IMG/VR virus record: IMGVR_UViG_3300032038_000072
Coordinates: 2,384-66,383 of that record
Source: a virus
Lineage: Duplodnaviria > Caudoviricetes
Direction: 5' to 3' (one strand)
Length of the DNA stretch: 64,000 nucleotides
The notes beneath the pieces are model-generated. The model did not search any database. It saw nothing but the letters and a program-made list of their open reading frames with translations, and had not been told where the DNA came from. The first letter of the stretch is position 1. Each line of letters starts with the position of its first letter. This document shows, piece after piece, positions 21,106 through 47,400 of this stretch. The translations under genes were made by a program, and so were the position numbers.

Positions 21106-21122
21106 ACGAAAGGAGCAAAGAC

Positions 21123-21398: not shown

Positions 21399-21410
21399 CC
21401 AAATTGTATC

Positions 21411-21439: not shown

Positions 21440-21465
21440 ATAGACAACGAGAGGAGATGTGAGCC

Positions 21466-21738: not shown

Positions 21739-21739
21739 C

Positions 21740-22159: not shown

Positions 22160-22181
22160 GTCAACGAAAGGAGCTAACACA

Positions 22182-22610: not shown

Positions 22611-22637
22611 CGTATTGAACGCGAAAGGAGCTAACAA

Positions 22638-30693: not shown

Positions 30694-31090
30694 GTAATTC
30701 ACCCCACAGTACACCTGCTTTTTTCAGCCACCGCTTTGCTTCTGCCATCGTTGCTCCCGCAAACAATGCTCCGGCTTCTTCGTTGTATAACCAAGGCACA
30801 GCCTTTTTGTTTATTGTCTCCACAGAGTACGGACAGTTGTGATAACCGTCTTTCGGCTCTCGGATGTAGTATCCGTCGTAGCGGTCAAACGCAATCTTGC
30901 GTATGTTCCCTTTACCGTGTTCTACGCACCATTTATCGTCATATTCATGATAGTCCTTTCGGTCGTAAGGTTCACCTGCATTACAATCGTATGGAGCATC
31001 GTCCCAGTCATCACCCCATTGATTCTTAAAGTTATCGGTGAAAAACAGTACAGTATCATCGACATAACACAGCTTATATTGTTTGCTCAT
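30686..31090 (-). CDS. Conserved phage protein (WGDDWDDAPY motif)
   Basis: QWGDDWDDAPYDCNAGEPY. Confidence 0.7.
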   Translation of the reverse strand: MSKQYKLCYVDDTVLFFTDNFKNQWGDDWDDAPYDCNAGEPYDRKDYHEYDDKWCVEHGKGNIRKIAFDRYDGYYIREPKDGYHNCPYSVETINKKAVPWLYNEEAGALFAGATMAEAKRWLKKAGVLWGELHE

Positions 31091-31458
31091 TCTTTTCCCT
31101 CCCGTTTTAACAATGCTCCCTTGATCTCTGTAAGTTCTGCGTTAATCCCCATCAACTCATACAGCCTTGCTGTTTGCTCCTGAATTGCTATTTCCAATTC
31201 TTTCGTCCGCTTTTTCATTTCTAAACTCATGTGCTTTTCTTTCATCTCTGAAAGCTCGTTGCGTACCACGATGTCTGCGATATGCTCCGTTCCGCAGTAT
31301 TCGCACTTGTATGTTCCCCGTGTCAACGGTGCGCCACAGTTCTGACAGACTAAAGCGTGTGTGCTGCCTACAACCTCTTCATACATCTCTTTTGTGGGGC
31401 CAATCGGAAAGTAGTCCACATCCTCTTGTCTTCCAAACTCTATAACATGAACGCTCAT
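31087..31458 (-). CDS. Zinc-ribbon plus coiled-coil protein
   Basis: CQNCG...CEYCG. Confidence 0.65.
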   Translation of the reverse strand: MSVHVIEFGRQEDVDYFPIGPTKEMYEEVVGSTHALVCQNCGAPLTRGTYKCEYCGTEHIADIVVRNELSEMKEKHMSLEMKKRTKELEIAIQEQTARLYELMGINAELTEIKGALLKREGKE

Positions 31459-31775
31459 TCTTCGCTCTCCTCGTTAAGCCATTTTTCAAAAGCTTCAGCC
31501 TCATCACAATGTCTCTCGCTTATTTTTGCTGTACATTTATCATACCGAAAACTATAATGCTCACATAGTTTACACGGAAGAACAAACCACGTTCCCAAAA
31601 ACTCTGCCAATGCTTCCGGGCTGGCTGTTATGCGTTGGAAATTAGTATACGGATTTTTAAACTTTTGCACAATCTCGTCAACTTCTCCCGTTCCGTTGCA
31701 GTATATGCATGGTTGAAAAGTTCCGTTTATACAAGTATTACTCGTTCCGTATCCATCGCAGCACTGGCATTTCAT
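31455..31775 (-). CDS. DnaJ-type zinc finger plus TN..I...E.LAEFL...WL module
   Basis: CQCCDGYG...CIYCNGTG...TNFQRITASPEALAEFL...KWLNEE. Confidence 0.7.
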   Translation of the reverse strand: MKCQCCDGYGTSNTCINGTFQPCIYCNGTGEVDEIVQKFKNPYTNFQRITASPEALAEFLGTWFVLPCKLCEHYSFRYDKCTAKISERHCDEAEAFEKWLNEESEE

Positions 31776-32026
31776 CCTTCGTCACCCTCCTCGAACCCCA
31801 AGCCTTTTAACGTTTTCTTGAGCTTATTCCAAACCTTCTCTTTGCATTTATCACAGTAGTGTCCATTTTTTTCAAAGTTACCAAAACTCCACGATACTTC
31901 ACCAATCTCTTCGTAATATCCATCATCCCATTCTTCACTACTTCCCAATAAACAACCGCACTCATCGCAGTAAAACTCATGCATGGTTACTACTTCCGTT
32001 TTCTCCACATAGTTAATTTTTTCCAT
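31772..32026 (-). CDS. Zinc-binding hypothetical protein
   Basis: YCDECG...YCDKC; AGGGGG SD. Confidence 0.65.
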   Translation of the reverse strand: MEKINYVEKTEVVTMHEFYCDECGCLLGSSEEWDDGYYEEIGEVSWSFGNFEKNGHYCDKCKEKVWNKLKKTLKGLGFEEGDEG

Positions 32027-32036
32027 ATCCATCCCC

Positions 32037-32666
32037 CTACAGAAACAACCGCTTATCCTCGTCCGCAGCTTTCTTTGCGGCCTCTGCCGCTTCCGCATCC
32101 TTGTACATCTTGATGCACAGCTTCCTGATCTCCTCTGCTGCCTTATCCCCGCCCTGGGGCAGGATGATGTGCATATAATCATCGACACGGAATTCGCACT
32201 GTCCGTCCTTGACCTTTGTCCTGCCGACCGGGAAACCGATACGATGGAACGCTTTTCTATACTCGCAGTTCTTTACATGTTCTCCCTGCGGACACATATC
32301 GCAATGCAGAAGAGCCATCTCTCCGACCAAACACCAATCCTCGTAACTGATTGTCCTGTCTTCCGCAGCCGGTTTTGTTCTGTCCTCTACCCGCAGTTGA
32401 TCTACTGTGTACAGCCGCAGGTCGGAGTTCTCCCGCCTGCGTTTAACCGTCTTAACCTGGTCTTTGTCAAGGCACTCCAACCGCTCATCCGTAACCTTGC
32501 TCAAGTTCGTGGCGGCAATAGCCATACGCTTTGCCCAGTCCTTTTCCTTGTCGGTCTTTGCGTTCTTTTTTGTTTCCTCTGCCGCAACCTTTGCTTCTCC
32601 GGCAAGGCAGGCAATCTTCAGCCACTCCAGCAAATCCCAACTCGACATATACGGCTTCTCTTTCAC
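32037..32666 (-). CDS. Helical protein with Cys cluster
   Basis: GTG start with ACGAAGGGAGCAA SD variant. Confidence 0.7.
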   Translation of the reverse strand: MKEKPYMSSWDLLEWLKIACLAGEAKVAAEETKKNAKTDKEKDWAKRMAIAATNLSKVTDERLECLDKDQVKTVKRRRENSDLRLYTVDQLRVEDRTKPAAEDRTISYEDWCLVGEMALLHCDMCPQGEHVKNCEYRKAFHRIGFPVGRTKVKDGQCEFRVDDYMHIILPQGGDKAAEEIRKLCIKMYKDAEAAEAAKKAADEDKRLFL

Positions 32667-32687
32667 TTTGCTGTTGCTCCCTTCGTG

Positions 32688-33179
32688 TTATTTCTTGTTT
32701 AATTTAGTCTCGATAAATGTCAGCCCAACTGCGTAGGCCGCCCACATATCCTGCTTGAATCCGTAGAACCAGTCCGGGTTCTTCTTTGTTCCTCTGCCAA
32801 ACTTAAAGTCGTGTTCCGCAAATCGGTCTATTAATGCGTGTCGGATTGTCGCATCGTTTGCCTTTGGACTATCACAGATGTGCAGTTTCTCTTCCCGGCG
32901 GTAAATCAGTTCCACTTTGTGTGCGCTCCGCAGGTTCATAATTTCAAAGAATCTCCCAATCCACACGCAGGTTTCAAACACCTCTTTGCCGACCGGCATT
33001 CCGTAGCTGGCTATCATTTCGATAACGCATCTGTCTTCCATGCTCATATCCATTGTTTTGAGCTTCCATAACAAGTCTGCGTTTTCATCTATACCTGCCT
33101 GCTCTGGCACTAATGTTTCGGAATCCATTATCACCCATGCGCTTTGTGTCGTTCCCGGATCGATTGCTATGACTTTCAT
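32688..33179 (-). CDS. RuvC-like Holliday junction resolvase
   Basis: VIAIDPG, VIEM and D.WAAYAVG motifs. Confidence 0.85.
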   Translation of the reverse strand: MKVIAIDPGTTQSAWVIMDSETLVPEQAGIDENADLLWKLKTMDMSMEDRCVIEMIASYGMPVGKEVFETCVWIGRFFEIMNLRSAHKVELIYRREEKLHICDSPKANDATIRHALIDRFAEHDFKFGRGTKKNPDWFYGFKQDMWAAYAVGLTFIETKLNKK

Positions 33180-33412
33180 TTTTCCGTCTCCTTTTTCGGA
33201 AGCCAACCAATGCGTGTATCCGCCCATTCAAAATCTTTGTTTTCAACGCTTCTAAAAATGTCCATGTTTAACTCAATTAGCTTGTTTATACGAGCAAGCT
33301 CTTCTCGTTTCTCTTTGGCTATTGCCTCGTACCTTTTAACATCACTTTCTATCTCCGACCTTACCAATATCATGTCTTTTATTGTCCGCTCGTCTCCTAA
33401 AAATAGCATCAC
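33176..33412 (-). CDS. Hypothetical coiled-coil protein
   Basis: AGGAGG SD before GTG33412. Confidence 0.65.
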   Translation of the reverse strand: MMLFLGDERTIKDMILVRSEIESDVKRYEAIAKEKREELARINKLIELNMDIFRSVENKDFEWADTRIGWLPKKETEK

Positions 33413-33747
33413 GCTTCCTCCTGTTTTCGGTTCTTTTCCTGCTCTCTGTGGAGCCAATCTATCTGTGCCTGCAGTCTTGCCTGCCGCTCTGCAATGATGC
33501 CTAAAAACCTGCGCTTTGCTAATACAGAAGACTTCTTTGTGTTTGGCATCTGCGGCAGGACCCTTTCATCCAGCCCGGAAGCAAACTTAACGGTGTCTTC
33601 CTGGATTTTTTTCTGCATGGCCTGTTTCTCTTTCCGCGTCAGCTTCCGGTAAATGTCATACGGCTCAAAATCTAACCGGTTTTCCGGCGGCTGCTGCATC
33701 GTCAGCCCGCTGACTTCTACATCCCTTGTGTCTATCATTCCGGTCAT
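33409..33747 (-). CDS. Hypothetical protein
   Basis: Contiguous ATGA overlaps with neighbours. Confidence 0.65.
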   Translation of the reverse strand: MTGMIDTRDVEVSGLTMQQPPENRLDFEPYDIYRKLTRKEKQAMQKKIQEDTVKFASGLDERVLPQMPNTKKSSVLAKRRFLGIIAERQARLQAQIDWLHREQEKNRKQEEA

Positions 33748-34274
33748 TTCAGCATCAACCTCACTTCGTTACCGCTCTCAATCAGCACCGCATTGCCTAA
33801 AACGTAGGCGTTCATCTTCTGTTCTTTCTTTCGTTCGCAGATGGACTTGTACATATCCCTCAACTGCGCACGGACGATAGGCAGGTCTTTGGTCAGCACG
33901 GAGCAAAGTTCTTCCCAACCAAATGCGTTGACCGCATCCTCTATTTCCTTGTGGGTGAATTTCGGCTTACCGTACACGAATGTTTCGTGCATCTCTTTTT
34001 CAATCTGCTTCCACGCTTCTTCCCAAGATGGAGAACCGGTCCCAGTAGCTTGCTGTACGAGGCTCTGCGCCGCCTGTACAAGTTCCGCAATGCTCGGCAG
34101 GTGCTTGCACTCCATGATGGCCTTTTTGCACACCTTGTCCAGTATATCTGCCGATATGCAGTCTAACATCTCCACATAGGTTGCCATGCGTTCCGCTTCA
34201 CCGGCCTGCCCGAAGGCGGTAAACATCATCGTGATTGCCTTTGCTTTTTTAGCCTTGTCCTGTGCCGTCGCCAT
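33744..34274 (-). CDS. Helicase loader/inhibitor-like protein (G39P/lambda P position)
   Basis: KHLPSIAEL and WEEAW...GWEELC motifs directly after initiator. Confidence 0.65.
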   Translation of the reverse strand: MATAQDKAKKAKAITMMFTAFGQAGEAERMATYVEMLDCISADILDKVCKKAIMECKHLPSIAELVQAAQSLVQQATGTGSPSWEEAWKQIEKEMHETFVYGKPKFTHKEIEDAVNAFGWEELCSVLTKDLPIVRAQLRDMYKSICERKKEQKMNAYVLGNAVLIESGNEVRLMLK

Positions 34275-35010
34275 TGATTTCATCTCCTATTCCCAGCAAC
34301 TCAAGTGTCCTTTGGTAACCTGCCTGTGCATCGTTTCTTCGTATAGGCCGGTTTACCGTTTCCTTGTTTTCTTTTCTTGCCCAGTTCCGGATCGTAGCAA
34401 GATAGTTTGTGTAACTCTTTCCCCTGGAAGCGCAGTATCCGGAAACGCGTTCTATTCTTTCCTGCCAATCTGTTGGGAATTCTTCTTTCAGCTTTTCCAA
34501 TTCCTCGTCAGACAGGAGCACATTTTTGTACTCACCATATTGGTGCTTCGGAGGTTTTTCTTTTTTATTTATTTTTTCTTTATTCTTTACTTCTTTAATT
34601 CTTTTATTATTAATAGGTAGAAAGTCGTTTTGTGTCCCACTTGTGTCCCATTTGTGTCCCACTTGCGTCCCGTTTTGTGTCCCAACGACTTGATATTTAG
34701 ACCAGTTAACCACGGTAATAAGCGTGTTCCGAGGTGTTGTTTGTGTCTCAATTTGCGTCTCATTTTTGAACAACATAATGGTCCGGTGTAAAGTTGAACG
34801 TGGAATACCAAGTTCTTTAGCCATCTGCCTCATCTTGAACAATCCCTGACCGGGTTGCAAAGTTATCCTCTTTCCCTCAAACACGACGTCTTCTGGTTGG
34901 TATGCAACATTCAGTAAAATGTACGCCCATGTACCAAGCGTGTTCGCGTTGCGCATCCAGGGGTTGTTAAAAATGCTCCGGTGAATCTTAACCCATCCTG
35001 TGTTATCCAT
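34249..35010 (-). CDS. Phage replication initiator (lambda O-like)
   Basis: GWVKIHRSI N-terminus, internal iterons, NYLATIRNWARKE C-terminus. Confidence 0.9.
   Translation of the reverse strand: MDNTGWVKIHRSIFNNPWMRNANTLGTWAYILLNVAYQPEDVVFEGKRITLQPGQGLFKMRQMAKELGIPRSTLHRTIMLFKNETQIETQTTPRNTLITVVNWSKYQVVGTQNGTQVGHKWDTSGTQNDFLPINNKRIKEVKNKEKINKKEKPPKHQYGEYKNVLLSDEELEKLKEEFPTDWQERIERVSGYCASRGKSYTNYLATIRNWARKENKETVNRPIRRNDAQAGYQRTLELLGIGDEINGDGTGQG
34623..34690. repeat. Replication origin iterons
   Basis: Five 11-bp TTG(T/C)GTCCCNN repeats (34630-34685) bracketed by AGTCGTT/AACGACT, next to AT-rich 34560-34620. Confidence 0.85.
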
Positions 35011-35078
35011 TGCAGCTTATCTCCAGCCTCGCCCCCGGCACGGAGCAGTTTGTACCGGGGGCTACTTCCTCTCTGTCG

Positions 35079-35942
35079 TTAATCTTCGTCGCCGAAGGGA
35101 ACAATTTCCGGTTCCTGCATTCCATCCGGCAATTCTTCTTTCTTCGGCTCTTCCTCTACTGGCGTTACATTAATCGGTTCCGTCTCATCATTCACGTCTA
35201 CCATATCCGGCTGGATGTCCGTCTTGATGGTTTCATCTGCAGCCAGGTTCTTAACAAACTCACTTTTTAATGGTGCGTACTTCAGGACCTGTTTTAACAC
35301 AGTCTTTTTTGCCATAGCGTCGAAGTTCGTACTCCACGGGCTGTACCCGCTGCTGTATGCCTTGCTGTAGGTCTTAGCATGTGCCTGGATGTCTTCTTTG
35401 CTCATGACCAGGAAGTTGAATCCACCGGCCTTGGTCTTAAACATCGCGTAGTACGCAATGACTTCTCCGCGGTTCTTTAATGCCGGTTTAAACTTCAGCT
35501 TCGGTTCCAGCCCGTATTCGTATTCAAACTCGTCGTTTGCGTGTACGGCCTGTGCGTCGATGATGCTTACTTCCCCGGAACGATATGCCAGGTCCAGGAA
35601 GGATTTGTATCCCAGGATAAACTGACATTCCAGCCGGCCTTTGTTCCGGTAAGGGATCAGGTATGCCTGCCCCAGCGGCGTATTGGGTTCTACCCCCAGC
35701 TGGGCTGCCTGCATAACGGCGCCCAGGAAAGATTCCGGAGTACACTTCTGCAGGTCCGGATTGGTGGATAATGCGGTCATCACCATCCTGGTGTACCGTT
35801 CCGGAGTTAACACGGACGGTAAAGCCTTTGCGATCTGTCCCTGCATTTTGGAAAGTAACAATTTTAAACCGGTTGTCTGTGTAGCCTGTGCTACTTCGTT
35901 TTTTGCATCGACCTTTGCGATGCCAGTCTTTGCATTTGCCAT
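35079..35942 (-). CDS. recT: RecT single-strand annealing protein
   Basis: GVEPNTPLGQAYLIPY, ILGYK and MAKKTVLKQVLKYAPL motifs. Confidence 0.95.
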   Translation of the reverse strand: MANAKTGIAKVDAKNEVAQATQTTGLKLLLSKMQGQIAKALPSVLTPERYTRMVMTALSTNPDLQKCTPESFLGAVMQAAQLGVEPNTPLGQAYLIPYRNKGRLECQFILGYKSFLDLAYRSGEVSIIDAQAVHANDEFEYEYGLEPKLKFKPALKNRGEVIAYYAMFKTKAGGFNFLVMSKEDIQAHAKTYSKAYSSGYSPWSTNFDAMAKKTVLKQVLKYAPLKSEFVKNLAADETIKTDIQPDMVDVNDETEPINVTPVEEEPKKEELPDGMQEPEIVPFGDED

Positions 35943-36001
35943 TTCGCATTCCTCCTATATACTTTTAATTGCAAAACAACCATCAACTATAAATATACTT
36001 T

Positions 36002-36673
36002 TTACATAAGTTTAGATAATTCGTTTTTCAGTGTTTCGATTTCCCGCTGCATCTTTTCCAGCCGGTCTACCAGTTCCGGCAGTTCTTTCTGCAACCGCAT
36101 GATCTTAACGACCTTGCTTTCAAAGTCGTCAGCAACAATCTCTTCTTTTTCAGGCTCTACAACAACAGCGCTTTCAATCGGCTTCTTATTTTCTTTTTCG
36201 CTGTCCACCATAGCTTCCAAGTCGTACGATTTGAGTTTTAATACGGTCAGTATGTTTTGGAAGGCCATCGGTCTTGGCTTTACCTTTCCACTGATCCACA
36301 GACCAACGGAAGAGGAATGCACACCGATAAGCCTGGCGAAGGCGGCGTTGGACTTGTATTTTTTCTGAATCATCTTGTAGATTCGTTTGTACACGACATC
36401 CGGAAAGTGTGCGTTTTGACTCATCCCGGTTGCTCCGCTGTCCGCATCATCAAACAGCTCGCTGTATTGGATACCACAGGCCTCTGAAATCCGAAGCAAC
36501 TCTATTCCGTTATCCAGCACATTGACGCCGCCCTCAATTTCATTGACGCGTTTCGGTGTCAGATGCGAACGCTCTGCAAACCTTTCAAAATCCAATCCCA
36601 ACATGAACCGAAATGCGCTTACGTTCTTCGCCACAATCTGCTCGGTCGTCAGCCTGACTTTTTTCTGTTCCAT
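36002..36673 (-). CDS. Tandem XRE-HTH protein
   Basis: Two HTH segments (NVSAFR...RVNEIE; AAFARLIGVHSSSVGLWISG) plus coiled coil. Confidence 0.75.
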   Translation of the reverse strand: MEQKKVRLTTEQIVAKNVSAFRFMLGLDFERFAERSHLTPKRVNEIEGGVNVLDNGIELLRISEACGIQYSELFDDADSGATGMSQNAHFPDVVYKRIYKMIQKKYKSNAAFARLIGVHSSSVGLWISGKVKPRPMAFQNILTVLKLKSYDLEAMVDSEKENKKPIESAVVVEPEKEEIVADDFESKVVKIMRLQKELPELVDRLEKMQREIETLKNELSKLM

Positions 36674-36709
36674 CGTTTTAGCTCCTCTCGTTTTTTGTTT
36701 TTTTATTTT

Positions 36710-37663
36710 CTATTTCATTAAGAATTTACGGAACGGATTGCCCGTTTTTGTGTATTTTTTATAGGCTTCCGGCATCTCTGCCTCAAACGCCTTAAGGTCT
36801 ACTGTTACTTTGCCCGGCATGTTGATCCAGCTCGCTTTGTGTTCGCCGATAACAGCACGTTCGTTGTCTCCCATAAGCACCTTAATCTTGTTTTCACATT
36901 CGGACTTAAGCGTTTCCAGGTTCTTGATGGTCTTCTTATACTCCGCGTAGTCCTTAAACAGCTCTTCCAGAGACTCTGTGCTTTCCAGCTCCAGTTCCTT
37001 CTTCGGTACGGCCGCCGGATACATAATGTTCAGCGCGTTTTTCGTGTCTTCCAGCCCGTCCACTTCCGGCATTATGTTGTGTTCCACGGTCGTCCAAAAT
37101 GCATTTTCCTTTGCGAAAAGCTCTTCTATGAAAGCTTCGTTGCGCGGGACTTCCTTATACACGAAATGGTTGCCTCCGATTAACGCTGCAATGTACCAGC
37201 GCGGCAGGCCAGTACACAGCAGGTAATGTTGAATTTGGCAAAAATATGAGTCTGGCAAATCGTCGTCTTTCCACAAAGCGGACTGGCGAACACCCACGTT
37301 TTTGATTTCCAATCCCGCGTCCTCTCCGACGATTAACCTATCTACGTTGGCCAGCATCCAGGGATACTTTACGCTTTGCAATGTGCCGCACTTGCGTACC
37401 TTTTTTCCGGTCCGTTCTTCAAACAACTCCGCAATAAGCGGCTCGAACTTTATACCCATCTCTACACTTTCGTTGTCGCTAAGATCGTCCGGCTCCTTCT
37501 GGCCGGTCTTTTCCATCCAGAGGGACAACCGGCTTTTGTACGGATTGACGCCCATAATTACACCTGCATCGCTTCCGCCGATCCCTTTGTTGCGGATCGC
37601 CAACCACTTGTCGTGGTTCTTAGCGGCCTCCTCGACCGTCAAAATCAGCTTTGTGTTTTTCAT
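36710..37663 (-). CDS. YqaJ-like viral recombinase exonuclease
   Basis: GIGGSDA, ANVDR, GLEIK and QIQHY motifs; partner of RecT. Confidence 0.93.
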   Translation of the reverse strand: MKNTKLILTVEEAAKNHDKWLAIRNKGIGGSDAGVIMGVNPYKSRLSLWMEKTGQKEPDDLSDNESVEMGIKFEPLIAELFEERTGKKVRKCGTLQSVKYPWMLANVDRLIVGEDAGLEIKNVGVRQSALWKDDDLPDSYFCQIQHYLLCTGLPRWYIAALIGGNHFVYKEVPRNEAFIEELFAKENAFWTTVEHNIMPEVDGLEDTKNALNIMYPAAVPKKELELESTESLEELFKDYAEYKKTIKNLETLKSECENKIKVLMGDNERAVIGEHKASWINMPGKVTVDLKAFEAEMPEAYKKYTKTGNPFRKFLMK

Positions 37664-37881
37664 TCCATTATCTCCCTCGCGTCAAAATCCCCAAAGTCAT
37701 AGTCTAAATACGAACCGCGCAGAGCGGACTTAATGTCATCGTAAGCATCGCTCTCCGCTTCGTCTTTGTTTCTTGCGGATGTCTTGTATGTGAATTCCAC
37801 TACCACTTTCACTTCGTAGTCCTTGTAGATTGCGTCCCTCTCTGCGTCTCTGCGATACTCTTCCATATCCGGATCAAACAT
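37660..37881 (-). CDS. Acidic hypothetical protein
   Basis: Extended SD at 37887-37900. Confidence 0.7.
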   Translation of the reverse strand: MFDPDMEEYRRDAERDAIYKDYEVKVVVEFTYKTSARNKDEAESDAYDDIKSALRGSYLDYDFGDFDAREIME

Positions 37882-37882
37882 T

Positions 37883-37948
37883 TTACTTGCTCCTTTCGTT
37901 AAAACCTGCTATAATATATTTAGGCTTCAATGACTTTTGCTCGGTCAT
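37883..37948 (-). CDS. Possible 21-aa leader peptide (MTEQKSLKPKYIIAGFNERSK)
   Basis: Perfect extended SD at 37951-37964; stop lies next to the SD of the next gene. Confidence 0.35.
   Translation of the reverse strand: MTEQKSLKPKYIIAGFNERSK
37887..37915 (+). promoter_or_regulatory. Antisense sigma-A promoter driving the candidate sRNA
   Basis: TTGCTC(37887)-17-TATAAT(37910) with extended TG. Confidence 0.65.
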
Positions 37949-38003
37949 TGTTGCTCCTTTCGTTGACAGGCTCGGGATTTGCTCTCCCGGGCCTTTTTAT
38001 TTT
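37922..38003 (+). ncRNA. Candidate about 80-nt antisense sRNA with anti-SD seeds
   Basis: Promoter, 7-bp hairpin, linker UUGCUCCUUUCGUU, 10-bp terminator stem and U tail. Confidence 0.6.
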
Positions 38004-38173
38004 GGGTATTCGAACCAAACGCTATGGCCGATTATCCCTATCGCGATGGCGTCAAACATCACCGCAACAACCAACGTCAGGACCGCTACTGACAGAATAA
38101 GCTGCACCCAAAAGTTGCTAAAAAAGCGGTTCAGGTAGGATGATATCCTGCCTTTTTTTGTCTGCTTTTGCAT
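37997..38173 (-). CDS. 58-aa membrane protein
   Basis: AAAGGAG SD before ATG38173; one long hydrophobic helix. Confidence 0.55.
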   Translation of the reverse strand: MQKQTKKGRISSYLNRFFSNFWVQLILSVAVLTLVVAVMFDAIAIGIIGHSVWFEYPK

Positions 38174-38372
38174 ACGCTTCCAGCTCCTTTTCCGTGATTC
38201 CCATGTAGTCGCAGAACTCCCTGGTGTTAATGAAGTAGTCGTACCGGCTACCGTTCTCATCCAACTTAACGGCAAATCCGAATTTCACCAGATTCCGCTG
38301 CAGTGCTATCCTAACAAACTGTTGGCCTTTATTCATTACCTTGGCCGCCAACGCTACGCTTACTTTAATCAT
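38118..38372 (-). CDS. Small HTH DNA-binding protein (excisionase-like candidate)
   Basis: VSVALAAKVMNKGQQFVRIALQR...YDYFI pattern. Confidence 0.55.
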   Translation of the reverse strand: MIKVSVALAAKVMNKGQQFVRIALQRNLVKFGFAVKLDENGSRYDYFINTREFCDYMGITEKELEAYAKADKKRQDIILPEPLF

Positions 38373-38670
38373 TCTCTTTCCTCTCCATCTGGTAGACCAT
38401 CAGGTCTTTAACGACGTCCCTTATCTCATTACTTACTTCACGATTGCTTGGGTACCCGCCGAGCAGCTCGTTGAAGTCTACTTTCAACGCTTTTGCCAGG
38501 CGCCGCAGGATTGGGACCGTCGGGGAGAACACCCCGAGTTCATAATTCCTATACGATGACTTTGATATTTCCGCGTCCGCCGCCAGATCAAGCTGCCTTA
38601 AATTTCTCTCCTTTCGCAGCCGGATCAGGTTTTTGCAGAACAGCTCATCGTAGTTTTTGTTGTCTTCCAT
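38365..38670 (-). CDS. XRE-family HTH protein
   Basis: NLIRLRKERNLRQLDLA...YRNYELG. Confidence 0.9.
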   Translation of the reverse strand: MEDNKNYDELFCKNLIRLRKERNLRQLDLAADAEISKSSYRNYELGVFSPTVPILRRLAKALKVDFNELLGGYPSNREVSNEIRDVVKDLMVYQMERKEND

Positions 38671-38677
38671 TTCATTT

Positions 38678-38830
38678 CTACCTCACCACGATGTCTATTA
38701 TTCCCACCAGGTACGGGATTGCTACGAAACAAAGTCCTGCGATAAACCCCGCCAGGTAGTTGTTGTTATCCACATGCCACAGCATCCAGCCGCCGACATG
38801 GTCGATGATGTCAATCGTTCTGTTTAACAT
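38678..38830 (-). CDS. 50-aa membrane peptide
   Basis: GAAAGGA SD; YLAGFIAGLCFVAIPYLVGIIDIVV. Confidence 0.55.
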   Translation of the reverse strand: MLNRTIDIIDHVGGWMLWHVDNNNYLAGFIAGLCFVAIPYLVGIIDIVVR

Positions 38831-39040
38831 TTCTATTCCTTTCTTCCGCAACAGGCTTTAAGCACTGCCGCCAAGGGTTACCGGAGTTACGAGAGGTAGA
38901 TGTTTGGGACCATCATTTTTGTGTGCCATAAGGAGGCTCCGGCTTGCTTGCGTTAAGCTTTTGGGTAGTATCAGGAAGGAGAATCCGTGTACAAACGCAA
39001 GACCACTTGATTGCGACAGTGTTTGAAACCTGTCGCGGAA

Positions 39041-39332
39041 TGTGAATATCATTCACAATTCTGCCCAAAAAAAATCATATCGCGTTGTTCATTTGTCATC
39101 CCCAAAGCAGATGCAAGGGTGACAATTTCACTTGCCTTAAACTCGCTGACGCTTTTCATCTTATTGGAAAACGCCATTTCGCTGATGCCGAGTCGCTCTG
39201 CAAGTGATTTTTTGGTCACCCCTGCCCTCTTGATCTGAAGTTCCAGTTCCAACTTGTTTGTCATTTTATCACCCCATTCCTTGATGAATTTTATTCACAA
39301 AGATAATATAGCACGTTTGTGAATATTAGTCA
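39041..39332. promoter_or_regulatory. Repressor operator candidates TGAAT-N3-ATTCA
   Basis: Copies at 39285-39297, 39318-39332 (one mismatch) in the cro/cI spacer and 39041-39057 at the cro 3' end. Confidence 0.6.
39049..39264 (-). CDS. cro: Cro-like repressor
   Basis: 71-aa HTH divergent from cI. Confidence 0.8.
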   Translation of the reverse strand: MTNKLELELQIKRAGVTKKSLAERLGISEMAFSNKMKSVSEFKASEIVTLASALGMTNEQRDMIFFGQNCE

Positions 39333-39420
39333 AGTATTTTTTTGTTAGATAAAAAAATGTTGATTTTAAGCAACATAAATGGTATTATAGAAGCACACTC
39401 TACGAAAGGAGCAAGCAGAC

Positions 39421-39795
39421 ATGAAGCTATATGAGAACATCAGAGCGCGGCGCATCGAGCTGCACATGACGCAGCAAGAATTAGCTATGAAGCTCGGCTA
39501 TAAGTCCACATCAACAATAGCAAAAATCGAAGCGGGAAGAAGCGATATTCCACAATCTAAAATTGTAGCATTTGCAAACGCATTAGACACAACGGCCGGA
39601 AAACTGATGGGTTGGACGGCAAAAGAAAAGGGAACCGCAGACGTTCCTGACACAGCCATTCTTGATGTACAGGAAGCAGCTCTGCTTGCAGAGTTTCACA
39701 AACTAAACGAAGACGGGAAGCTTAAGGTGTTTGAATACATCGGCGACCTGGCCGAAATGGAGAAATATACAAGGAAAAAAGATACATCCGCATAA
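39421..39795 (+). CDS. cI: CI-like XRE repressor
   Basis: MTQQELAMKLGYKSTSTIAKIEAG HTH; upstream of integrase. Confidence 0.85.
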   Translation: MKLYENIRARRIELHMTQQELAMKLGYKSTSTIAKIEAGRSDIPQSKIVAFANALDTTAGKLMGWTAKEKGTADVPDTAILDVQEAALLAEFHKLNEDGKLKVFEYIGDLAEMEKYTRKKDTSA

Positions 39796-39796
39796 T

Positions 39797-39948
39797 AAAA
39801 TAAAAAGACCACACGTAGCGCCAGAAAACGTGTGGTCTAATGCGATGCGGAATCCTGAGCCGTAAGCCGTCCACTAACCGTCTACAGGTTCCACGATGCG
39901 CTGTCCAAGCACGCGCTCGGCCCATGTCGGGTGTCGTCGCACATGCTT
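39797..39948 (-). ncRNA. Candidate about 150-nt RNA antisense to the cI-int intergenic leader
   Basis: Minus-strand TTGACT-17-TACAAT (39983-39955) and 11-bp terminator stem 39806-39838 with U tail. Confidence 0.55.
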
Positions 39949-40019
39949 TGTTATATTGTACCAAGCGAAAAAAGATAAGTCAAACTACAGAGTACCAAGA
40001 TTCTGCGAAAGGAGCAACT

Positions 40020-41039
40020 ATGAGATTTCCAAACGGATTCGGCGGGGTTAGCAAACTGTCCGGCAACCGCAGAAACCCTTATATCGTCCGCATTACAACC
40101 GGGTGGACGGATGACGCAAAGCAGATTATAAAGATACTGGGATACTACCCAACAAGGGCTGAGGCTATCAAAGCTTTGTCGGCTTACAACGCCAATCCAT
40201 ACGACTTGAATGACTCCGGGACCACGATGAAAGAGCTGTACGATATGTGGGAAGAGTGGATCAACACGGATAAAGGGCGGGACCTGACAAACAACTACAA
40301 GTCTGCGTTAAAACATTCAGAGCCATTATATAATATGAAGTTTGTTGAGATTCGCAAACGGCATATCCAAAGTTTGATAGACAACTGTCCCAAAGGATAC
40401 AGCACTAAAAAGAACATTAAAATACTTTTTAACCAGTTGTTTAAATTTGCCATAGATAGGGAGCTGGTACAGACCAACTATGCCACCTTATGTGAGCTAC
40501 CAGCGCGGGAATACAGCCGGCTGCATAAACCCTTCACGGACGAGGAGATCGCCTCTCTATGGGCAAATCCGAGTGATCCAGGGGCGTGTTATGCTTTAGT
40601 CTATATTTATACAGGCCTTCGCCCGGCAGAGCTGCTGCAGATAAAAACAGCGGACGTATTCCTGGATAAACATTATATGATGGGCGGCATGAAAACCGCA
40701 GCCGGAAAGAACCGGGTCATTCCCATAGCGAATAAGATCGAGCCAATTATAAAAGGCTGGTACAACGCCGACAACGAATACCTCTGCATCAGCCACAAGG
40801 ATGGGAAGCCCGTCCTCAATTACGACCGGCTCCGATCCCACTACTGGGAACGCAGTAAGCTGTTGGCAGACCACCTTCCACATGACGGAAGACACACCTG
40901 TGCCACGCTATTGGACAACGCAGGTGTAGCCAAGAGAACTGTCCAATTAATCCTTGGGCATTCCGCAAAAGATATTACGGAAAGAGTCTACACCCACAAG
41001 ACAATCGAGCAACTGATAGAAGCCATAAACAAAATATAA
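40020..41039 (+). CDS. int: Tyrosine integrase
   Basis: MRFPNGFGGV N-terminus; TGLRP, HDGRH, LGH and VYTH catalytic motifs; SD at 40005-40018. Confidence 0.95.
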   Translation: MRFPNGFGGVSKLSGNRRNPYIVRITTGWTDDAKQIIKILGYYPTRAEAIKALSAYNANPYDLNDSGTTMKELYDMWEEWINTDKGRDLTNNYKSALKHSEPLYNMKFVEIRKRHIQSLIDNCPKGYSTKKNIKILFNQLFKFAIDRELVQTNYATLCELPAREYSRLHKPFTDEEIASLWANPSDPGACYALVYIYTGLRPAELLQIKTADVFLDKHYMMGGMKTAAGKNRVIPIANKIEPIIKGWYNADNEYLCISHKDGKPVLNYDRLRSHYWERSKLLADHLPHDGRHTCATLLDNAGVAKRTVQLILGHSAKDITERVYTHKTIEQLIEAINKI

Positions 41040-41043
41040 TCGT

Positions 41044-41271
41044 GTTACTTGTCCGTTACTTGCGTGTTACTTACGGTTAAATTTTTAGTCAGTTTTACGA
41101 GGTTTAGGCAACAAAAAAAGAACCCCAGTATCCATGCGGATACCGGGGCTTTTTATTGGTTTTACGCTGTGTTCTGTTGTATACCCAATAGGTCGAAAGT
41201 TTAACGCTTGCATAATTGGAAACCGCTTAAAATGCGGGTTTTGATGCCGTAGTGTTACTTGCACGTTGCTT
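41044..41271. other. attP region with integrase arm-type repeats
   Basis: GTTACTT at 41044, 41055, 41066 and 41254, GTTGCTT at 41265 (11-bp period); non-coding between int and lysis genes. Confidence 0.7.
41115..41155. terminator. Bidirectional terminator after int
   Basis: CCCCAGTATCC/GGATACCGGGG stem with A and T runs. Confidence 0.7.
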
Positions 41272-41302
41272 CCGACCTACCTTTAATATGATTGTACCAC
41301 AA

Positions 41303-41755
41303 CTATTTCGATGCTGCAATACCAATCGCAAGTCCACCCAGGAAACACCAAATACGATTTTGCCAGACCTGCCGTTTGTGAACTCTTCTTTCCTTATCTA
41401 TTTGAGTTTTCAATTTCTCTGATAATTCCTTCAATTCTGACACTTCTTTCGATAGCAGAGTCAAGTCGCTTTTCTGCTCGTCCAGCGTCTTCGATAATTT
41501 GATAAGTGAGTCCTGTGCTTGTGCTAATTCCTCGACCAGCTGACTCGACGGTTTTTTTAGCCTCGTCATTTCTTTTTTGCACTCGGTCAAGTCCTGATTC
41601 AACAGCGTCAATTCGTTTTTCAAGCTGTTCCACTGTGCTATCGGTATTGTTATTGATTGTGTCGTTGCGGTGGGCGTCGCGGTATAACCAGTAACCGGCG
41701 ACAAGCAAAAGAACGATAACAGCAACAATAATACAATACTTTTTGTTTTTTTCAT
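41303..41755 (-). CDS. Spanin-like protein B (signal/TM, coiled coil, C-terminal TM)
   Basis: MKKTKSIVLLLLLSFFC... and IWCFLGGLAIGIAASK; follows endolysin. Confidence 0.6.
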   Translation of the reverse strand: MKKTKSIVLLLLLSFFCLSPVTGYTATPTATTQSITIPIAQWNSLKNELTLLNQDLTECKKEMTRLKKPSSQLVEELAQAQDSLIKLSKTLDEQKSDLTLLSKEVSELKELSEKLKTQIDKERRVHKRQVWQNRIWCFLGGLAIGIAASK

Positions 41756-41759
41756 ACAC
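41394..41759 (-). CDS. Spanin-like protein A (N-terminal TM plus coiled coil), overlapping B
   Basis: GTG41759; KKYCIIVAVIVLLLVAGYWLY then heptad-rich region. Confidence 0.6.
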   Translation of the reverse strand: MYEKNKKYCIIVAVIVLLLVAGYWLYRDAHRNDTINNNTDSTVEQLEKRIDAVESGLDRVQKRNDEAKKTVESAGRGISTSTGLTYQIIEDAGRAEKRLDSAIERSVRIEGIIREIENSNR

Positions 41760-41763
41760 ATCC

Positions 41764-42348
41764 TTAATCTCCCATTGCGTCATGATTCCAAATCCTCTGA
41801 TAATACGCCGCCTTACCGCGGATCAAATCGCCACCGGGTACAAGTTCTCCATTAGAGCCGTACTCATCCGGGATGTACCACAGGTCCCATCTTTCACAAG
41901 TGGTGCTGGGACCATAGTCATCCTTTTCCGCCGCTTCACAATGCGTCATTACATAGTCATCGCTGTCCAACGGCAGGTTAAATTCGTCCGCCAACACAGC
42001 AACAACCTGTGCCAACATTTCAATCTGTGCTGTTGTCGGTGGTTCGTCACCCAACCATGCGTTGTACCCGTTCCGGGCTTCTGCATCACACGCACACAGC
42101 AGACTTACACCCAAAGCGTATCTGTTCCGCATATAAGTATGTGCAAGCGTTTCCTTAAAGTCGTCGCACATGATGTAAATCTCACCGTTTTCATCAATAC
42201 AAATATGGTAGTCGTCATAAGCCTGACCATAATGCCCTGCCGTCCAATGCAGGTACACATGGTCGATATAGTCTCTTGCTTCCGCAGCCATGCCCCTGAC
42301 ATCATCGAGTGAATCAGGGGTCATGTTGCTGGTAGGTATCATTGCCAA
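41764..42348 (-). CDS. Endolysin, N-acetylmuramoyl-L-alanine amidase (Amidase_2)
   Basis: VYLHWTAG, YHICID, AHT..RN and THCE motifs; no cell-wall-binding domain. Confidence 0.9.
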   Translation of the reverse strand: MAMIPTSNMTPDSLDDVRGMAAEARDYIDHVYLHWTAGHYGQAYDDYHICIDENGEIYIMCDDFKETLAHTYMRNRYALGVSLLCACDAEARNGYNAWLGDEPPTTAQIEMLAQVVAVLADEFNLPLDSDDYVMTHCEAAEKDDYGPSTTCERWDLWYIPDEYGSNGELVPGGDLIRGKAAYYQRIWNHDAMGD

Positions 42349-42368
42349 TTTTAGTCACTTCCTTTGAT

Positions 42369-43204
<836 letters not shown>

Positions 43205-43208
<4 letters not shown>

Positions 43209-43537
43209 CTCTCCACTGTTACATCTGCAAGTAGATGATACGCATACGGCCCCACCGTAATGTATCTGCCCTCTGCGGTATCATCGTTAATGTGTATCTC
43301 AATATCGTAAAAATAATCACCAAACGCTAAATTCTGCGTCGTGTCGTGCGATATGTGTATATGATTATTCTCATCAGCATACACCTGATATAGATACGTC
43401 CTATCTTTCACATTCTTTTTAACAGAAAAGACTGCGCTGTAATCATATACAGGTACATCGTCGAATTTAACATTGATATCAAAATCAGCCGTGTCTCCAC
43501 GGGTGTGATAGATGACACCTTTTCTAATGTCAAACAC
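43205..43537 (-). CDS. BppU N-terminal-like fibre anchor protein
   Basis: TRGDT...FSVKK...GDYFYDIEI pattern. Confidence 0.65.
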
Positions 43538-43866
43538 TATTTAGCGCCCCCTTTCTTGTCGTTGTCTGTGGGTTCTTCTTCCCACTTGTCCGGGATGCCA
43601 TCATTGTCGCGGTCAATAAGCAGAATACCCAGCAGGGTAAATGTACCGCAGATGCTGGGAGTGAAATAGGCCGCAACAAAGTCGTTGATTGCTTTGTAAT
43701 TAATGATTCTTTTGATAAAAAACTCATAAACTATACCAAATATGGTTATAAAACCGCAAGCCAAAAAGGCCGCGGCATATACCCATACAAAGAGTTTGGG
43801 CAGCGTTCCACCGCTGCCCTTAACAAATATTTTGATTCTATCAGTTAACTGTTTAATGATTTTCAT
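43537..43866 (-). CDS. Holin-like membrane protein
   Basis: Two TM helices and IDRDNDGIPD tail; ATG43866. Confidence 0.65.
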   Translation of the reverse strand: MKIIKQLTDRIKIFVKGSGGTLPKLFVWVYAAAFLACGFITIFGIVYEFFIKRIINYKAINDFVAAYFTPSICGTFTLLGILLIDRDNDGIPDKWEEEPTDNDKKGGAK

Positions 43867-44167
43867 GCGGCATCTCCTCCAAAATCTCTTTTTCGATTTG
43901 ATCGAGGAAGCCATTGCCGCCAAGCCGTTTGTACGCCCTGTACATCTGCTCGGCGCTTTCTACTTCTCGTTGTGGTATTGGTCTTTCCTTGCGGCTGTAA
44001 TAGTCGTGCATTTGCAAAATCCTGTCCCGCAATAGAGCCTGGATGCCGTACTCGACGGCACCCATTTTCTTGAATATCGTTGACCAGCGGGTCGAAAAGT
44101 AGGTAAGTATCGCCCCCACGAAAAACGCAAGAACGATTGATTCAACCTGCTCAATCATAGGGACCAC
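43853..44167 (-). CDS. Lysis-cassette membrane protein (LLRDR...LGGNG family)
   Basis: N-terminal TM; GIQALLRDR and YKRLGGNG motifs. Confidence 0.7.
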   Translation of the reverse strand: MVPMIEQVESIVLAFFVGAILTYFSTRWSTIFKKMGAVEYGIQALLRDRILQMHDYYSRKERPIPQREVESAEQMYRAYKRLGGNGFLDQIEKEILEEMPHENH

Positions 44168-44177
44168 CTCGTTTTAA

Positions 44178-44405
44178 TTAGCCACCGGTTGATTCACTTC
44201 CACTACCACTTGATGCCGCCGCAGCCGCTGCTTCTGCCACTGCTGCTGCCGCCGCTACACAATAGCCATACAGCACCTGTTCCGCATCGGTCAGCGGTTC
44301 GGGTAATACAGTAATGTCATCGGTAGCACCTTTTGCCAAATAAAGCAGGTAAGCCTCCCTGTGTTTCAGATGTACCTTGTAAAGATCAGTCGTAGTCATT
44401 GCCAT
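44178..44405 (-). CDS. Small protein with REAYL/LPEP.T..EQ motifs
   Basis: AGGTGGAG SD; similar to 63772-63978. Confidence 0.65.
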   Translation of the reverse strand: MAMTTTDLYKVHLKHREAYLLYLAKGATDDITVLPEPLTDAEQVLYGYCVAAAAAVAEAAAAAASSGSGSESTGG

Positions 44406-44443
44406 AATAAAACTCCACCTTTCTTAAATAAAATATTATAGAA

Positions 44444-44473
44444 AAACCCGGTGGCTGAATTACCACCGGGTGT
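44444..44473 (-). terminator. Intrinsic terminator after giant gene
   Basis: ACCCGGTGG/CCACCGGGT stem then TTTT. Confidence 0.85.
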
Positions 44474-44487
44474 TCTATTGAATTAAG

Positions 44488-47400
44488 TTAAACTCCAAAC
44501 TTGCTTCCGTAACGCTGTAGCGTTTTCTTTTCAATCATCTTGATGATTTCTCGCTTCTTGTCAATCATTTGCCGCTTACGGTCCGGGCTGATGTTTTTCG
44601 CGTTCGTGATTTCCTGGATTTCTTTCTGTTGCTTACTTACATCCCGAAGCGCTTTGTTCACAGCTTTGACAGCCGGAGTCGGATGACCCTTCTTGCCATA
44701 ACCAGCGTGTTGCTGCTGGGCCGTGTTAACCATCTCGTAGAACTCTTCCGAGGTTCTGTTCATGTTCATGTCGTTCAGGAAGAAGTCACGAACCATAACC
44801 CGTTCCGTAACAGGTTTGCTTGGCAGGTTGCGTTCGTCTTCAAAATACATGTCCGGAATCTGCGCTACCATCATGCCCAGCGTACCGGTATAACCTCTAA
44901 TGGTGTTATCCAGCTTGACAGGAGACAACCCGGAAATTTTTCCAAGCGCCTTGCTCAGTTCCGTAGTGTTGTTGTTGTACCGCATCTCTGCCGGCAGCCT
45001 CTTCAACCGGTTTCCTTCGATAGCCTTGTCTCGGAACAGAGAATAGTTTGTTATCCATTCCAGGATCGGCAAGCCTACCGTCGGGATCAGGTTCGGAACC
45101 AAAACTTCTCGCATCGCGTTAACCCATTCTTTACCGGCTTTGGGGTCCTTGTCGTAAAGCTTATCCAGCATTGCTTCGATACCGGAGCCAAACGCTATAC
45201 CAGCTTCCTGCGGTTTCGGGATACGGAATTTCCCGATAATCCAGTTGTTCATTTTGATATGCGGATCAAGTTCCTCATACCAAGGTTCGTCTTTGTGCAT
45301 AAACCACAGGGCCACAGACGGGAGCAGGATATAAAGCCCAAGCATACGAGCTGTCTGCATCCGTACCTTCGGGTCTTTGCTGAATATCATGCGGTTAAAC
45401 ATCTTGTCGCCGCCCTGGATGCATGCGTTAAAGAACGGAACCATCATGTTTACGCGCTGTCCGTAGAAGCCGGAGCGGCTGAAGTCTAAGGTTACATCCC
45501 TTGCATCAAGGGCTGCTTCCTGCATCGACTTGCCTTTTGCCCTTGCCCGCATGTACTCACCCATACGAGTGGAAGCTTCAACAACTTCGGACGCTGCAGC
45601 AAACTTTTTGGGAATATACTTGATAAGCTCCTTAATCAGCTCGGTCGGATGCGCTTTCAGGTACTGCCAATCCTTTTCACCCATCAACTCTTCCATGCTC
45701 TTTACAGCGCTTTCGCCACTGCCAAAGTAGTTGTAGGCCGTAATACCCATCGCGTCAAACTCACCGCGCAGTTCCTTGTCATGCAGGTACGCCCACATGC
45801 CGCGGAACGAATCCAGCACCGGCACAAAACCGTTCCGACTGGATACGCCGGCGAAGATTGTGTCGCGGATAAAGTTCCGGATGATAAAGGATGGAGACGT
45901 CGTGGCGCCGTACCGTAATGTCTGTGCTGCACTGCGGCACAAACCTTCTACAATACCCGCTGCAGGCATGTCGTAACCTACGACAGGACCGTACAAGTCC
46001 TGCGTGGTTTGGAAGGCAACCTTTTTTCCGTTAATCAGTACCGTAAAGATACAGTTCTTCGAGTCTGCAGTGCTTCCAGGAACCTGCTTCAGTATTCCTT
46101 CTTTTTGCAGTTCCGGACTGTTGGCTACCGTTTTCACAAAGTGTACGGCAACCTTGTTCCGTTCTGCGCGGTTCGTAAGCGCCTGGATGCTCTTATACGT
46201 GGATTCCAACGGGGAAATCAATCCGCGGTCACTACCAAGCTGTAACACGTGTTTCAGCATACTATCCACGTTTGCAATGCTGTCAGCTCCTCTGCCAAAC
46301 TGGGCGATTGCCGTATCCAGTCCAGCCGTGTCGGAGTAGTCAATCATCAACGGGCAGTATTCTTTGTACATCTGGTTAACTTTGTCATGAACGTCCGCCG
46401 GAATCAGGTGACCCAGTTCCATCATCGTCAGCAGGTTACGCTGCAACTGATAATAGATTTGCGCCGAAGTATCGAACTCTTTCGGTGCTTCTCTTACCAG
46501 CGCTTCGAGGTCGGCCCTGGTAACGTCTTTCGGGAACTTGTATTCCTTTGCAAGGTCTTTTGCCATCTTCTCCGCAAGGGCAGGATCGCTCTTGGCAATC
46601 TTTTGCACCTGATCTCTCCACGACCCTTTGGCAAAGGGCTGCGGTCTGAATTTTTCGTATTCCGGATGTCTGTCGATAAAGTCCGTAAACTCTTTCTTGT
46701 CGTGCGTAATGTACTGTAAGCTCTTGTCCTCTACCAACCGTACCAGTTCCAGGATACGTCTTGCGCCAAGGTAATTGGAGAACGCGTCGTGCCAGTTGTT
46801 GATGCCGTGTTTCTCGAGGTAGTCCGGATACTTCCGGTCCATATCCTTTTTCATTATCGGCTCCAACGCCTCTTTAACGGTGGCAAACTTAAAGTCTTTC
46901 TTCAATTCCTTCAGTCTGTCCATCGCGGCTGTGTCTTTAGGATCGATTCCTCTCCCCAAAGCATCTTTCAGCGACTCAAACGCTTCTTTTGAACCTTGTA
47001 CAAGCGTGTCTGCAGCGCCCTGTGCGTATGCCCTTGCGCCCTGCACCATGTTGTAAATCTTGTCTTCTTCCGCAAGCTTCTTGCCTGTGATTTTTTCAAT
47101 TGTGTCGTCAATGTTGTGGATAGCATCGTTTTTGTCGATCCACTCACGATAGAATTTGTCGAACCTGTCTTTTAACCACTCAGTCCATGTCTGCGCCTTG
47201 TTCTTGTTCTGCGTGTTGCTGAACGCCTTAGACGCGCGGCCGGTCGCTGTGTTCTCGTTTGGCGTACGTACGTTGCGGTTAACGTATGCGTCCGCTTTGT
47301 CAATCACTTTGCCGGCGGCAGATATAATGGAATACTTGGCGTCTGGCATAGAAGAAGCACCCTCGTCTCCTTGGGTGCCTTGTACTTGTTCTTTATTTAC

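Follow-up and report, generated by a model that had tools for sequence, protein, structure and literature searches.

The minus-strand early operon of this virus appears to carry, antisense to it, a conserved phage gene for a non-coding RNA of about 80 nt. We give roughly even odds (about 0.5) to the reading that this RNA acts locally by base-pairing, in the way that the prophage RNA SR6 does. The existence, strand and architecture of the gene are established by comparison among related phages; from these data we infer its transcription, its targets and the direction of its effect. Probably the RNA switches off nearby early genes by pairing with their mRNA. The window referred to below is the whole stretch of DNA analysed, 64,000 nt of a 66.4-kb virus contig, and all coordinates are those of the window unless a relative is named.

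The element occupies a 115-nt gap in the early (cro-side) operon. On the mRNA it is preceded by a cro-like HTH gene, two small genes, an 84-aa gene (phrog_6058) and a gene for a 58-aa membrane protein, and it is followed by genes for a 73-aa acidic protein, a YqaJ exonuclease, an HTH protein, RecT and a DnaD-like loader. The RNA is thus located at the boundary between the early regulators and the recombination/replication genes. Genes for a cI-like repressor and an integrase are divergent from the early operon (39421-41039). The features of the region are the following.

36710-37663, minus strand: YqaJ/RecE-like exonuclease gene, first of the recombination-replication block (PF09588, 2.7e-38; phrog_434, 8.5e-102).
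37660-37881, minus strand: gene for the 73-aa acidic protein, downstream on the mRNA.
37883-37948, minus strand: 21-codon ORF, with its ATG within the hairpin-1 stem.
37887-37892, plus strand: -35 element TTGCTC, whose reverse complement flanks the next gene's ribosome-binding box on its 3' side.
37887-37900, minus strand: box in the ribosome-binding site of the 73-aa gene (RBS2), which overlaps the sRNA -35 and may be the nearest target of the seed.
37907-37915, plus strand: extended -10 TGcTATAAT (TG at 37907-37908, TATAAT at 37910-37915).
37922-38003, plus strand: predicted sRNA of ~80 nt (about 82 nt), its start deduced from the -10 spacing and its end from the U-tract.
37923-37955, plus strand: 5' domain, in which the closing helix P0 (37923-37925 with 37953-37955) encloses hairpin 1.
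37928-37950, plus strand: hairpin 1, 7-8 bp (37928-37935 with 37943-37950, loop 37936-37942).
37951-37964, plus strand: linker, 14-nt complement of the repeated ribosome-binding box.
37951-37964, minus strand: 'orphan' ribosome-binding box of the early mRNA, serving as template for the sRNA seed, core GAAAGGAGC in 17/17 variants.
37956-37967, plus strand: exposed anti-Shine-Dalgarno stretch (CCUUUCGUU...), unpaired in the minimum-energy folds of 17 variants.
37968-37994, plus strand: intrinsic terminator hairpin with a GC-rich 10-bp stem and the loop UUUGCUC, listed on this strand by a terminator scan.
37995-38003, plus strand: U-tract, TTTTTATTTT, covering the stop and last codons of the opposite-strand membrane-protein gene.
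37997-38173, minus strand: gene for the 58-aa membrane protein, with its stop codon directly against the sRNA terminator.

The initial annotation had assembled the plus-strand parts into a promoter-to-terminator sRNA gene of about 80 nt, and a check of the sequence found every part where it had been placed. In the window promoter, a spacer of 17 nt separates TTGCTC from TATAAT. The extended -10 is a perfect match to the consensus, and the -35 agrees at only three of six positions, which is why a generic promoter scan of the region did not list the sRNA promoter. As an 86-nt plus-strand RNA the element folds at -33.4 kcal/mol (z = -4.7; none of 200 shuffles equals it). The fold of the complementary strand is weaker and has a mismatched position in the long stem, yet this strand also stands apart from its shuffles (z = -3.2). 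The linker had been described as single-stranded. In the minimum-energy fold its first bases (GCU) pair with the 5' GGC of the RNA, so that the truly open stretch is about 37956-37967; the description holds from about 37956 onwards and fails for the initial GCU.

Two covariance models built for the element (R1 and R2) match exactly 37922-38003, at 85-91 bits. A search of 30000-46000 on both strands with the Rfam 15 covariance models (C4, OOP-type, RsaE and isrB included; E up to 1) gave no match, and neither P1 c4 nor P4 CI, which the initial annotation had named as analogies, was matched. The CUCCUUUC in the seed is identical to the 3' tail of Bacillota 16S rRNA, and would match the tail of the host if the host belongs to this phylum.

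Relatives of the element were collected by several routes. The 84-aa neighbour protein led to four IMG/VR contigs of the same arrangement, and two pattern scans yielded further viral and metagenome copies. To avoid the circularity of searching with the RNA sequence, the family of the 73-aa protein was also used as a query, followed by retrieval of the contigs of its more distant members; the element was present in all seven lineages fetched in this way. The resulting set consists of 17 distinct variants (the window and 16 relatives), or 18 sequences, two of which are nearly identical; L004 was excluded from the folding count. Nine of the variants (L001, L002, L191, L193, L194 and L196-L199) were found via neighbouring proteins and not via the RNA sequence. 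In the remaining 8/17 the invariance of the box and the -10 is partly a matter of ascertainment, because the search pattern required both. Other searches were negative: BLAST of 4 kb against GenBank phages found no match, a single-sequence search of IMG/VR with the 73-aa protein returned nothing, an alignment search there returned known records only, and a terminator-anchored pattern run against viral and genome collections returned just chance terminators in unrelated phyla.

The 73-aa family (A1) has 39 homologues, all unannotated, and in most relatives its gene stands immediately before the YqaJ/RecT recombination genes. It is missing from this position in L001, L002 and L191, where the element lies directly before yqaJ. 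In L191 (noted at L191:2983-3010 and 4400-4530) the 73-aa gene is found directly after the cro-like gene instead of before yqaJ, and the element still lies between the membrane-protein gene and yqaJ. A small hydrophobic ORF, by comparison, terminates at the sRNA terminator in 17/17 variants. The RNA is most tightly linked to the small membrane-protein gene, and it is linked as well to the box of whichever gene follows.

The promoter is conserved together with its spacing. TGnTATAAT is invariant in all variants; among the nine that were recovered by protein, C, T and G all occur as its variable base. A TTGC-type -35 (TTGCNC) lies 17 nt from the -10 in 16/18 sequences and 18 nt from it in the other two, and the -35/-10 spacing is kept even where the distance from box to TTGC shifts by 2 nt (L010, L015, L199). 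The TTGC of the -35 is also part of the flank of the RBS, which provides a second possible cause for its conservation. Taken together, these elements constitute a predicted antisense-strand promoter of the sRNA. A sense-strand promoter at the AT-rich box was also considered and was rejected for want of a suitably spaced -35.

Each of the 17 variants, when folded singly, gives the same structure: a closing helix, hairpin 1, an open stretch, and a terminator followed by a U-tract. The closing helix has 3-4 bp and joins the 5' end of the RNA to the first anti-box bases (P0 is paired in 100% of cells), and the open stretch between the hairpins consists of about 10 bases containing CCUUUC. The stems themselves differ almost completely in sequence among lineages, with about eight unrelated versions of hairpin 1 and nine of the terminator stem, as counted by eye from the folds. 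MAFFT followed by RNAalifold on the raw alignment gave no structure because the stems were misaligned, a problem that was solved by alignments made with covariance models. The refined alignment is fitted to the covariance model, and the independent single-sequence folds agree with it. Pairing extends to 89% of cells in this alignment and to 70% in shuffles.

The initial annotation had looked to covariation in related phages as a check on the element, and compensatory changes are indeed found in both hairpins. Pairs changed on both sides make up 7/8 in hairpin 1 and 7/10 in the terminator. The covariation score is 0.55 compared with 0.21 in shuffles (0/500 reach it) and 0.07-0.16 in slid controls. 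Furthermore, a covariance model made from ten variants recovers the seven that were left out, and it finds exactly one copy per complete phage genome. A weak match of the model at L136:10767-10835 was rejected, being the antisense of an ordinary RBS and lacking a terminator. The conservation of all parts in 17 variants, with compensatory changes, bears out the proposed plus-strand gene running from promoter to terminator.

Several observations place the structure on the plus strand. The plus-strand fold is the more stable one in 17/18 sequences, by a mean of 4.6 kcal/mol, and the predicted helices contain 42 G·U wobble pairs on this strand versus 16 on the mRNA strand. In the terminator stem 98.8% of cells are paired, and 15 cells are G·U or U·G against 2 non-pairs; on the mRNA strand those 15 wobbles would be A·C mismatches, so that the stem is good only on the plus strand. 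On the minus strand no variant has a T-run after the hairpin, and such a run is found on the plus strand only. The fold stability, the wobble asymmetry and the plus-only T-run together argue that the structure is selected on the plus strand. This weakens the suggestion, made in the initial annotation, that the loops are displayed on the minus-strand mRNA as sites for a protein. The absence of a minus-strand T-run in any variant also led us to reject the hairpin as a sense-strand or bidirectional terminator. What the hairpin and U-tract predict is an antisense intrinsic terminator, ending over the 3' end of the upstream gene.

That upstream gene shares its end with the RNA. The plus-strand U-tract is the reverse complement of the final codons and stop of the membrane protein, and the A-run and stop codon (CCAAAATAA, minus strand) are retained in nearly all variants. 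At 37997-38005 in the window, and in all relatives, the Pro-Lys codons and the stop of the membrane protein are conserved at the nucleotide level and double as the antisense terminator U-tract. The 58-aa ORF (38173-37997), encoded opposite the RNA, belongs among proteins of under about 60 aa with a hydrophobic core; it has no Pfam or PHROG family match, no lead in Atlas and no similarity to a known toxin family, and its own RBS is without the box. The ORF overlaps the end of the 84-aa gene (38118-38372, minus strand) by 56 nt in a different frame. In most relatives it begins at an ATG just before a conserved LNRF motif; in the window, L010 and L199 this ATG is absent, and an in-frame ATG upstream gives the protein a basic extension at its N-terminus. 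On the plus strand, at 38133-38153, there is another terminator-like hairpin with seven T's after it, about 130 nt past the sRNA terminator and within the overlap of the 84-aa and membrane-protein genes. It is not seen in the counterpart stretch of L001.

Within the drifting RNA, the seed stays constant. The exposed CCUUUCG is retained in 15/17 variants, one of the others having A in place of the final G and one lacking the following U; GCTCCTTTC is invariant in alignments A2 and A6, and the core of the seed is unchanged while the neighbouring stems drift. The folds thus predict a conserved, single-stranded, pyrimidine-rich seed complementary to Shine-Dalgarno regions. The terminator loop carries the motif GCU(C/A) in all variants, and in 12/17 of them, by our own count, the base before it is the same as in the seed. 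It had been proposed that UUGCUC is exposed three times in the RNA and that these loops should be conserved in related phages. Three copies are present in the window phage; relatives keep just the linker copy and the GCU(C/A) of the terminator loop, and the UUGCUC of the hairpin-1 loop is lineage-specific.

The template of the seed is a copy of a ribosome-binding box, AACGAAAGGAGCAA, of which the window holds eight exact copies, two of them within the element, and 15 copies if up to 2 mismatches are allowed, where 0.8 would be expected. Every one of the 15 is in the sense orientation, 2-7 nt ahead of a start codon. The earlier count of 14 or more genes with an exact complement of the 14-nt linker has to be lowered: the match is exact at eight sites only, and 15 are reached when up to 2 mismatches are allowed. 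The box serves a set of small accessory genes (16.5-22.6 kb), together with cI, int, the 73-aa gene and two further genes. The core GAAAGGAG is a general strong Shine-Dalgarno of early genes in related phages; the long box is frequent in this phage only, and relatives have 1-5 copies of its 10-nt core. In the relative L191, all four GAAAGGAG boxes are without the preceding C that is found in nearly all boxes of the other small loci.

Most of the exact copies fall in an island of small genes without recognisable family (16500-22700, plus strand). The island includes hydrophobic ORFs of 45 aa and 20 aa, and its gene at 17560-17835 resembles the C-terminal part of RecE-like exonucleases. The box copy at 40004-40022 (plus strand), with an ATG at 40020, suggests that the integrase starts there (339 aa) and not at the longest-ORF start, 39840.

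On the early mRNA, a start codon (ATG) follows the box within the element in 5/17 variants only (the window, L058, L193, L194 and L197). We call the box an 'orphan' Shine-Dalgarno because the other 12 have no start codon after it. The same observation speaks against a 21-codon leader ORF as the cis target of the RNA, as had been supposed, since its ATG is absent in 12/17 variants and the frames are unconserved: of the frames traced, that of the window stops ahead of the next gene, that of L058 is joined in frame to this gene, and those of L193 and L194 continue out of frame. The ORF is probably fortuitous. The RBS of the next gene, by comparison, contains at least 8 nt of the box core (GAAAGGAG, GAAAGGGG or GAAGGGAG) in all variants and is complementary to the phage's own seed if G·U wobbles are allowed. 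This complementarity could also have another cause, namely the combined constraints of a strong SD and a -35.

A local mechanism would work as follows. The RNA would be transcribed from the plus strand, antisense to the early operon, from a sigma-A-type promoter with an extended -10, the -35 of which overlaps the ribosome-binding box of the next early gene. Transcription would end at the intrinsic terminator, where the U-tract overlaps the stop codon of the small membrane protein. The RNA could then pair over its whole length with the polycistronic early mRNA, where the membrane-protein gene meets the recombination genes, and this duplex may mark the mRNA for RNase III and lower the expression of the upstream gene. 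The open anti-SD stretch of about 10 bases would in addition cover ribosome-binding sites of the box type, first that of the gene about 35 nt away. One point against the local model is that the RNA and the membrane-protein ORF overlap by only about 7 nt, far less than SR6 and yonT or OOP and cII.

The closest analogue is SR6 of the prophage SPβ (yonT/SR6/yoyJ), and OOP of λ is similar in placement. SR6 lies across the 3' end of a gene for a small toxin, itself part of a polycistronic prophage transcript; pairing there destabilises the upstream toxin message by way of RNase III, and SR6 apparently also blocks the RBS downstream (PMC5848175). Like SR6, which is roughly 100 nt long, the RNA described here would be an antisense RNA with its own promoter, located between a gene for a small hydrophobic protein and the next gene (PMC5848175). 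SR6 overlaps yonT by about 65 bp and also overlaps the yoyJ RBS (PMC5848175), whereas the present RNA shares about 7 nt with the ORF and would reach the downstream RBS only via the duplicated box in the seed. There is no sequence similarity between the two, and the membrane protein here is a putative toxin only. A further parallel is SprA1AS of Staphylococcus aureus, a cis-encoded antisense RNA whose non-overlapping domain acts on an RBS (PMC5848175).

The 77-nt OOP RNA of lambda and Stx phages is likewise antisense, with its own promoter and an intrinsic terminator; it lies in the early operon (rightward in lambda), between regulatory and replication/recombination genes, its own end lies over the 3' end of the gene upstream, and RNase III cleaves the duplex (PMC12197685). 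OOP differs in overlapping cII extensively, in having no anti-Shine-Dalgarno seed and in belonging to another host phylum. In c4 of P1/P7, CI of P4 and sar of P22, exposed stretches of small phage RNAs pair with phage ribosome-binding regions, and c4 uses repeated short complementary boxes to do so (PMC12197685). Both c4 and CI are cut out of the transcript of their own target and regulate an antirepressor or immunity, whereas the present RNA has a predicted promoter of its own and lies before recombination genes.

C/U-rich anti-SD sRNAs are familiar from Bacillota, where RNAIII, RsaE/RoxS and LhrC occlude Shine-Dalgarno sequences by means of open pyrimidine-rich motifs or loops. Their motifs are of the UCCC/CCCC type, whereas the present seed is U-rich (CCUUUC), like the 16S tail, and is phage-encoded, with no Rfam homology to them.

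A second reading of the same RNA, which we regard as possible though doubtful, moves its main role into trans. As a master anti-box RNA it would silence every gene with the 14-nt box (the 16.5-22.6 kb island, cI, int and the 73-aa gene) and so serve as an early shut-off or immunity switch. The over-representation of the box, always just before starts, is consistent with this speculation. Furthermore, the box is conserved beyond the part that is able to pair with 16S rRNA, which calls for another reader, and the seed is retained even though no ORF is there for it to act on. The repetition of the seed's variable base in the terminator loop (12/17 variants) points in the same direction. The 14-nt complementarity, however, is automatic, because the template of the RNA itself contains a copy of the box. 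The abundance of the long box in this phage only, against 1-5 copies of the 10-nt core in relatives, and the status of GAAAGGAG as merely a general strong SD of the early genes of these phages, also weigh against a regulon. Part of the 14-nt complement is sequestered in helix P0, and an RNA made from a constitutive promoter that represses the translation of cI would be at odds with lysogeny.

Co-change of seed and boxes among relatives gives a mixed answer. In L191, four of four boxes and the seed are without the usual C/G pair at the same position, and in both G002 and G004 further RBSs have 13-18 nt in common with the seed template of the same phage. On the other side, G001 has no site matching its own seed variant, and for one homologous gene the box fits the seed in G004 and has diverged in G001. 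Even where co-variation is seen, concerted evolution of the boxes would look the same, because the template of the seed is itself a box copy. The energies from an RNAduplex scan of the full RNA over the whole window were inflated and uninformative, and they were set aside. We therefore hold only tentatively to the idea that the RNA is a dedicated trans-acting reader of a phage-private ribosome-binding tag, which would close the regulon in a resident prophage or a superinfecting relative. If true, it would be an RNA-level immunity or shut-off switch, and the first identified 'reader' for start-associated sequences, the function of which has been open since 2011.

The tight linkage to the membrane-protein gene raises the question of a pure type I toxin-antitoxin pair, with the 58-aa protein as the toxin, the RNA as an antitoxin acting via its 3' overlap, and the anti-SD stretch as incidental. 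The small hydrophobic ORF ends at the terminator in every variant while the downstream gene is variable, and the geometry is that of txpA/RatA, bsrG/SR4 and yonT/SR6 of Bacillus prophages (PMC5848175). We consider this explanation unlikely, given that the protein resembles no known toxin family, that its gene lies mid-operon with no promoter of its own identified, and that the two overlap by about 7 nt within the ORF. It would also leave the invariant seed unexplained in an RNA that otherwise drifts.

Still less probable, in our judgement, is a sense-strand mRNA element with no functional antisense RNA, in which the orphan SD and the hairpins either stabilise the recombination mRNA through the 30S subunit, as in STAB-SD, or bind a protein at the GAGCAA repeats. 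Such an element would account for an orphan SD that is conserved without a start codon, and strong SDs lacking a start codon are known to stabilise Gram-positive mRNAs (PMC3997798). The likeness to STAB-SD lies in a strong SD (GAAAGGAG core) far from a start codon in an untranslated stretch of mRNA (PMC3997798); STAB-SD is a 5'-end element of the sense strand, whereas the structure around the present box is selected on the opposite strand. The minus strand does fold better than its shuffles. On the other hand, wobbles in the helices become mismatches on the mRNA strand, which folds worse in all but one of the 18 sequences, and the invariant TGnTATAAT, the fixed 17-nt distance to TTGC and the opposite-strand U-tract would go unexplained. 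A sense-strand stabiliser could coexist with the sRNA, which would then mask it; because of the strand evidence, it cannot replace the RNA. That the element has no function, its promoter-like and terminator-like sites being a coincidence in an intergenic region made up of two ribosome-binding sites, is very improbable: the promoter scan of the single window did not flag it, and promoter-like and terminator-like sites are near chance frequency in the region, but conservation, covariation and single-copy specificity over 17 variants speak against chance.

The local antisense reading thus remains the preferred one, and the family to which the RNA belongs is undescribed (no Rfam match). Its kind is known from antisense phage sRNAs, dual-function type I antitoxins and anti-SD seeds. 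To our knowledge, phage small RNAs have been described almost only from enterobacterial phages. A 2025 review of phage sRNAs makes no mention of Gram-positive hosts or Bacillus (PMC12197685).

Cluster K mycobacteriophages offer a comparison for the box. Their start-associated sequence (SAS) is an asymmetric motif of 13-14 nt that includes the SD and lies upstream of many non-structural starts; it is conserved beyond the need for rRNA pairing, and its reader ('RNA or protein') is unidentified (PMC3203893). The present box is similarly an asymmetric motif of at least 13 nt, with many sense copies just before non-structural starts, although this is an analogy only and the sequences are unrelated. 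The differences are the host phylum, the presence of a candidate RNA reader in the same genome, and the abundance of the long box in one phage of the family.

The element described here represents a well-conserved RNA family in uncultured temperate phages with Bacillota-type signals, for which promoter, terminator and covariation all provide support. The predicted RNA would thereby offer a concrete candidate for the reader of extended 'start-associated' ribosome-binding boxes.
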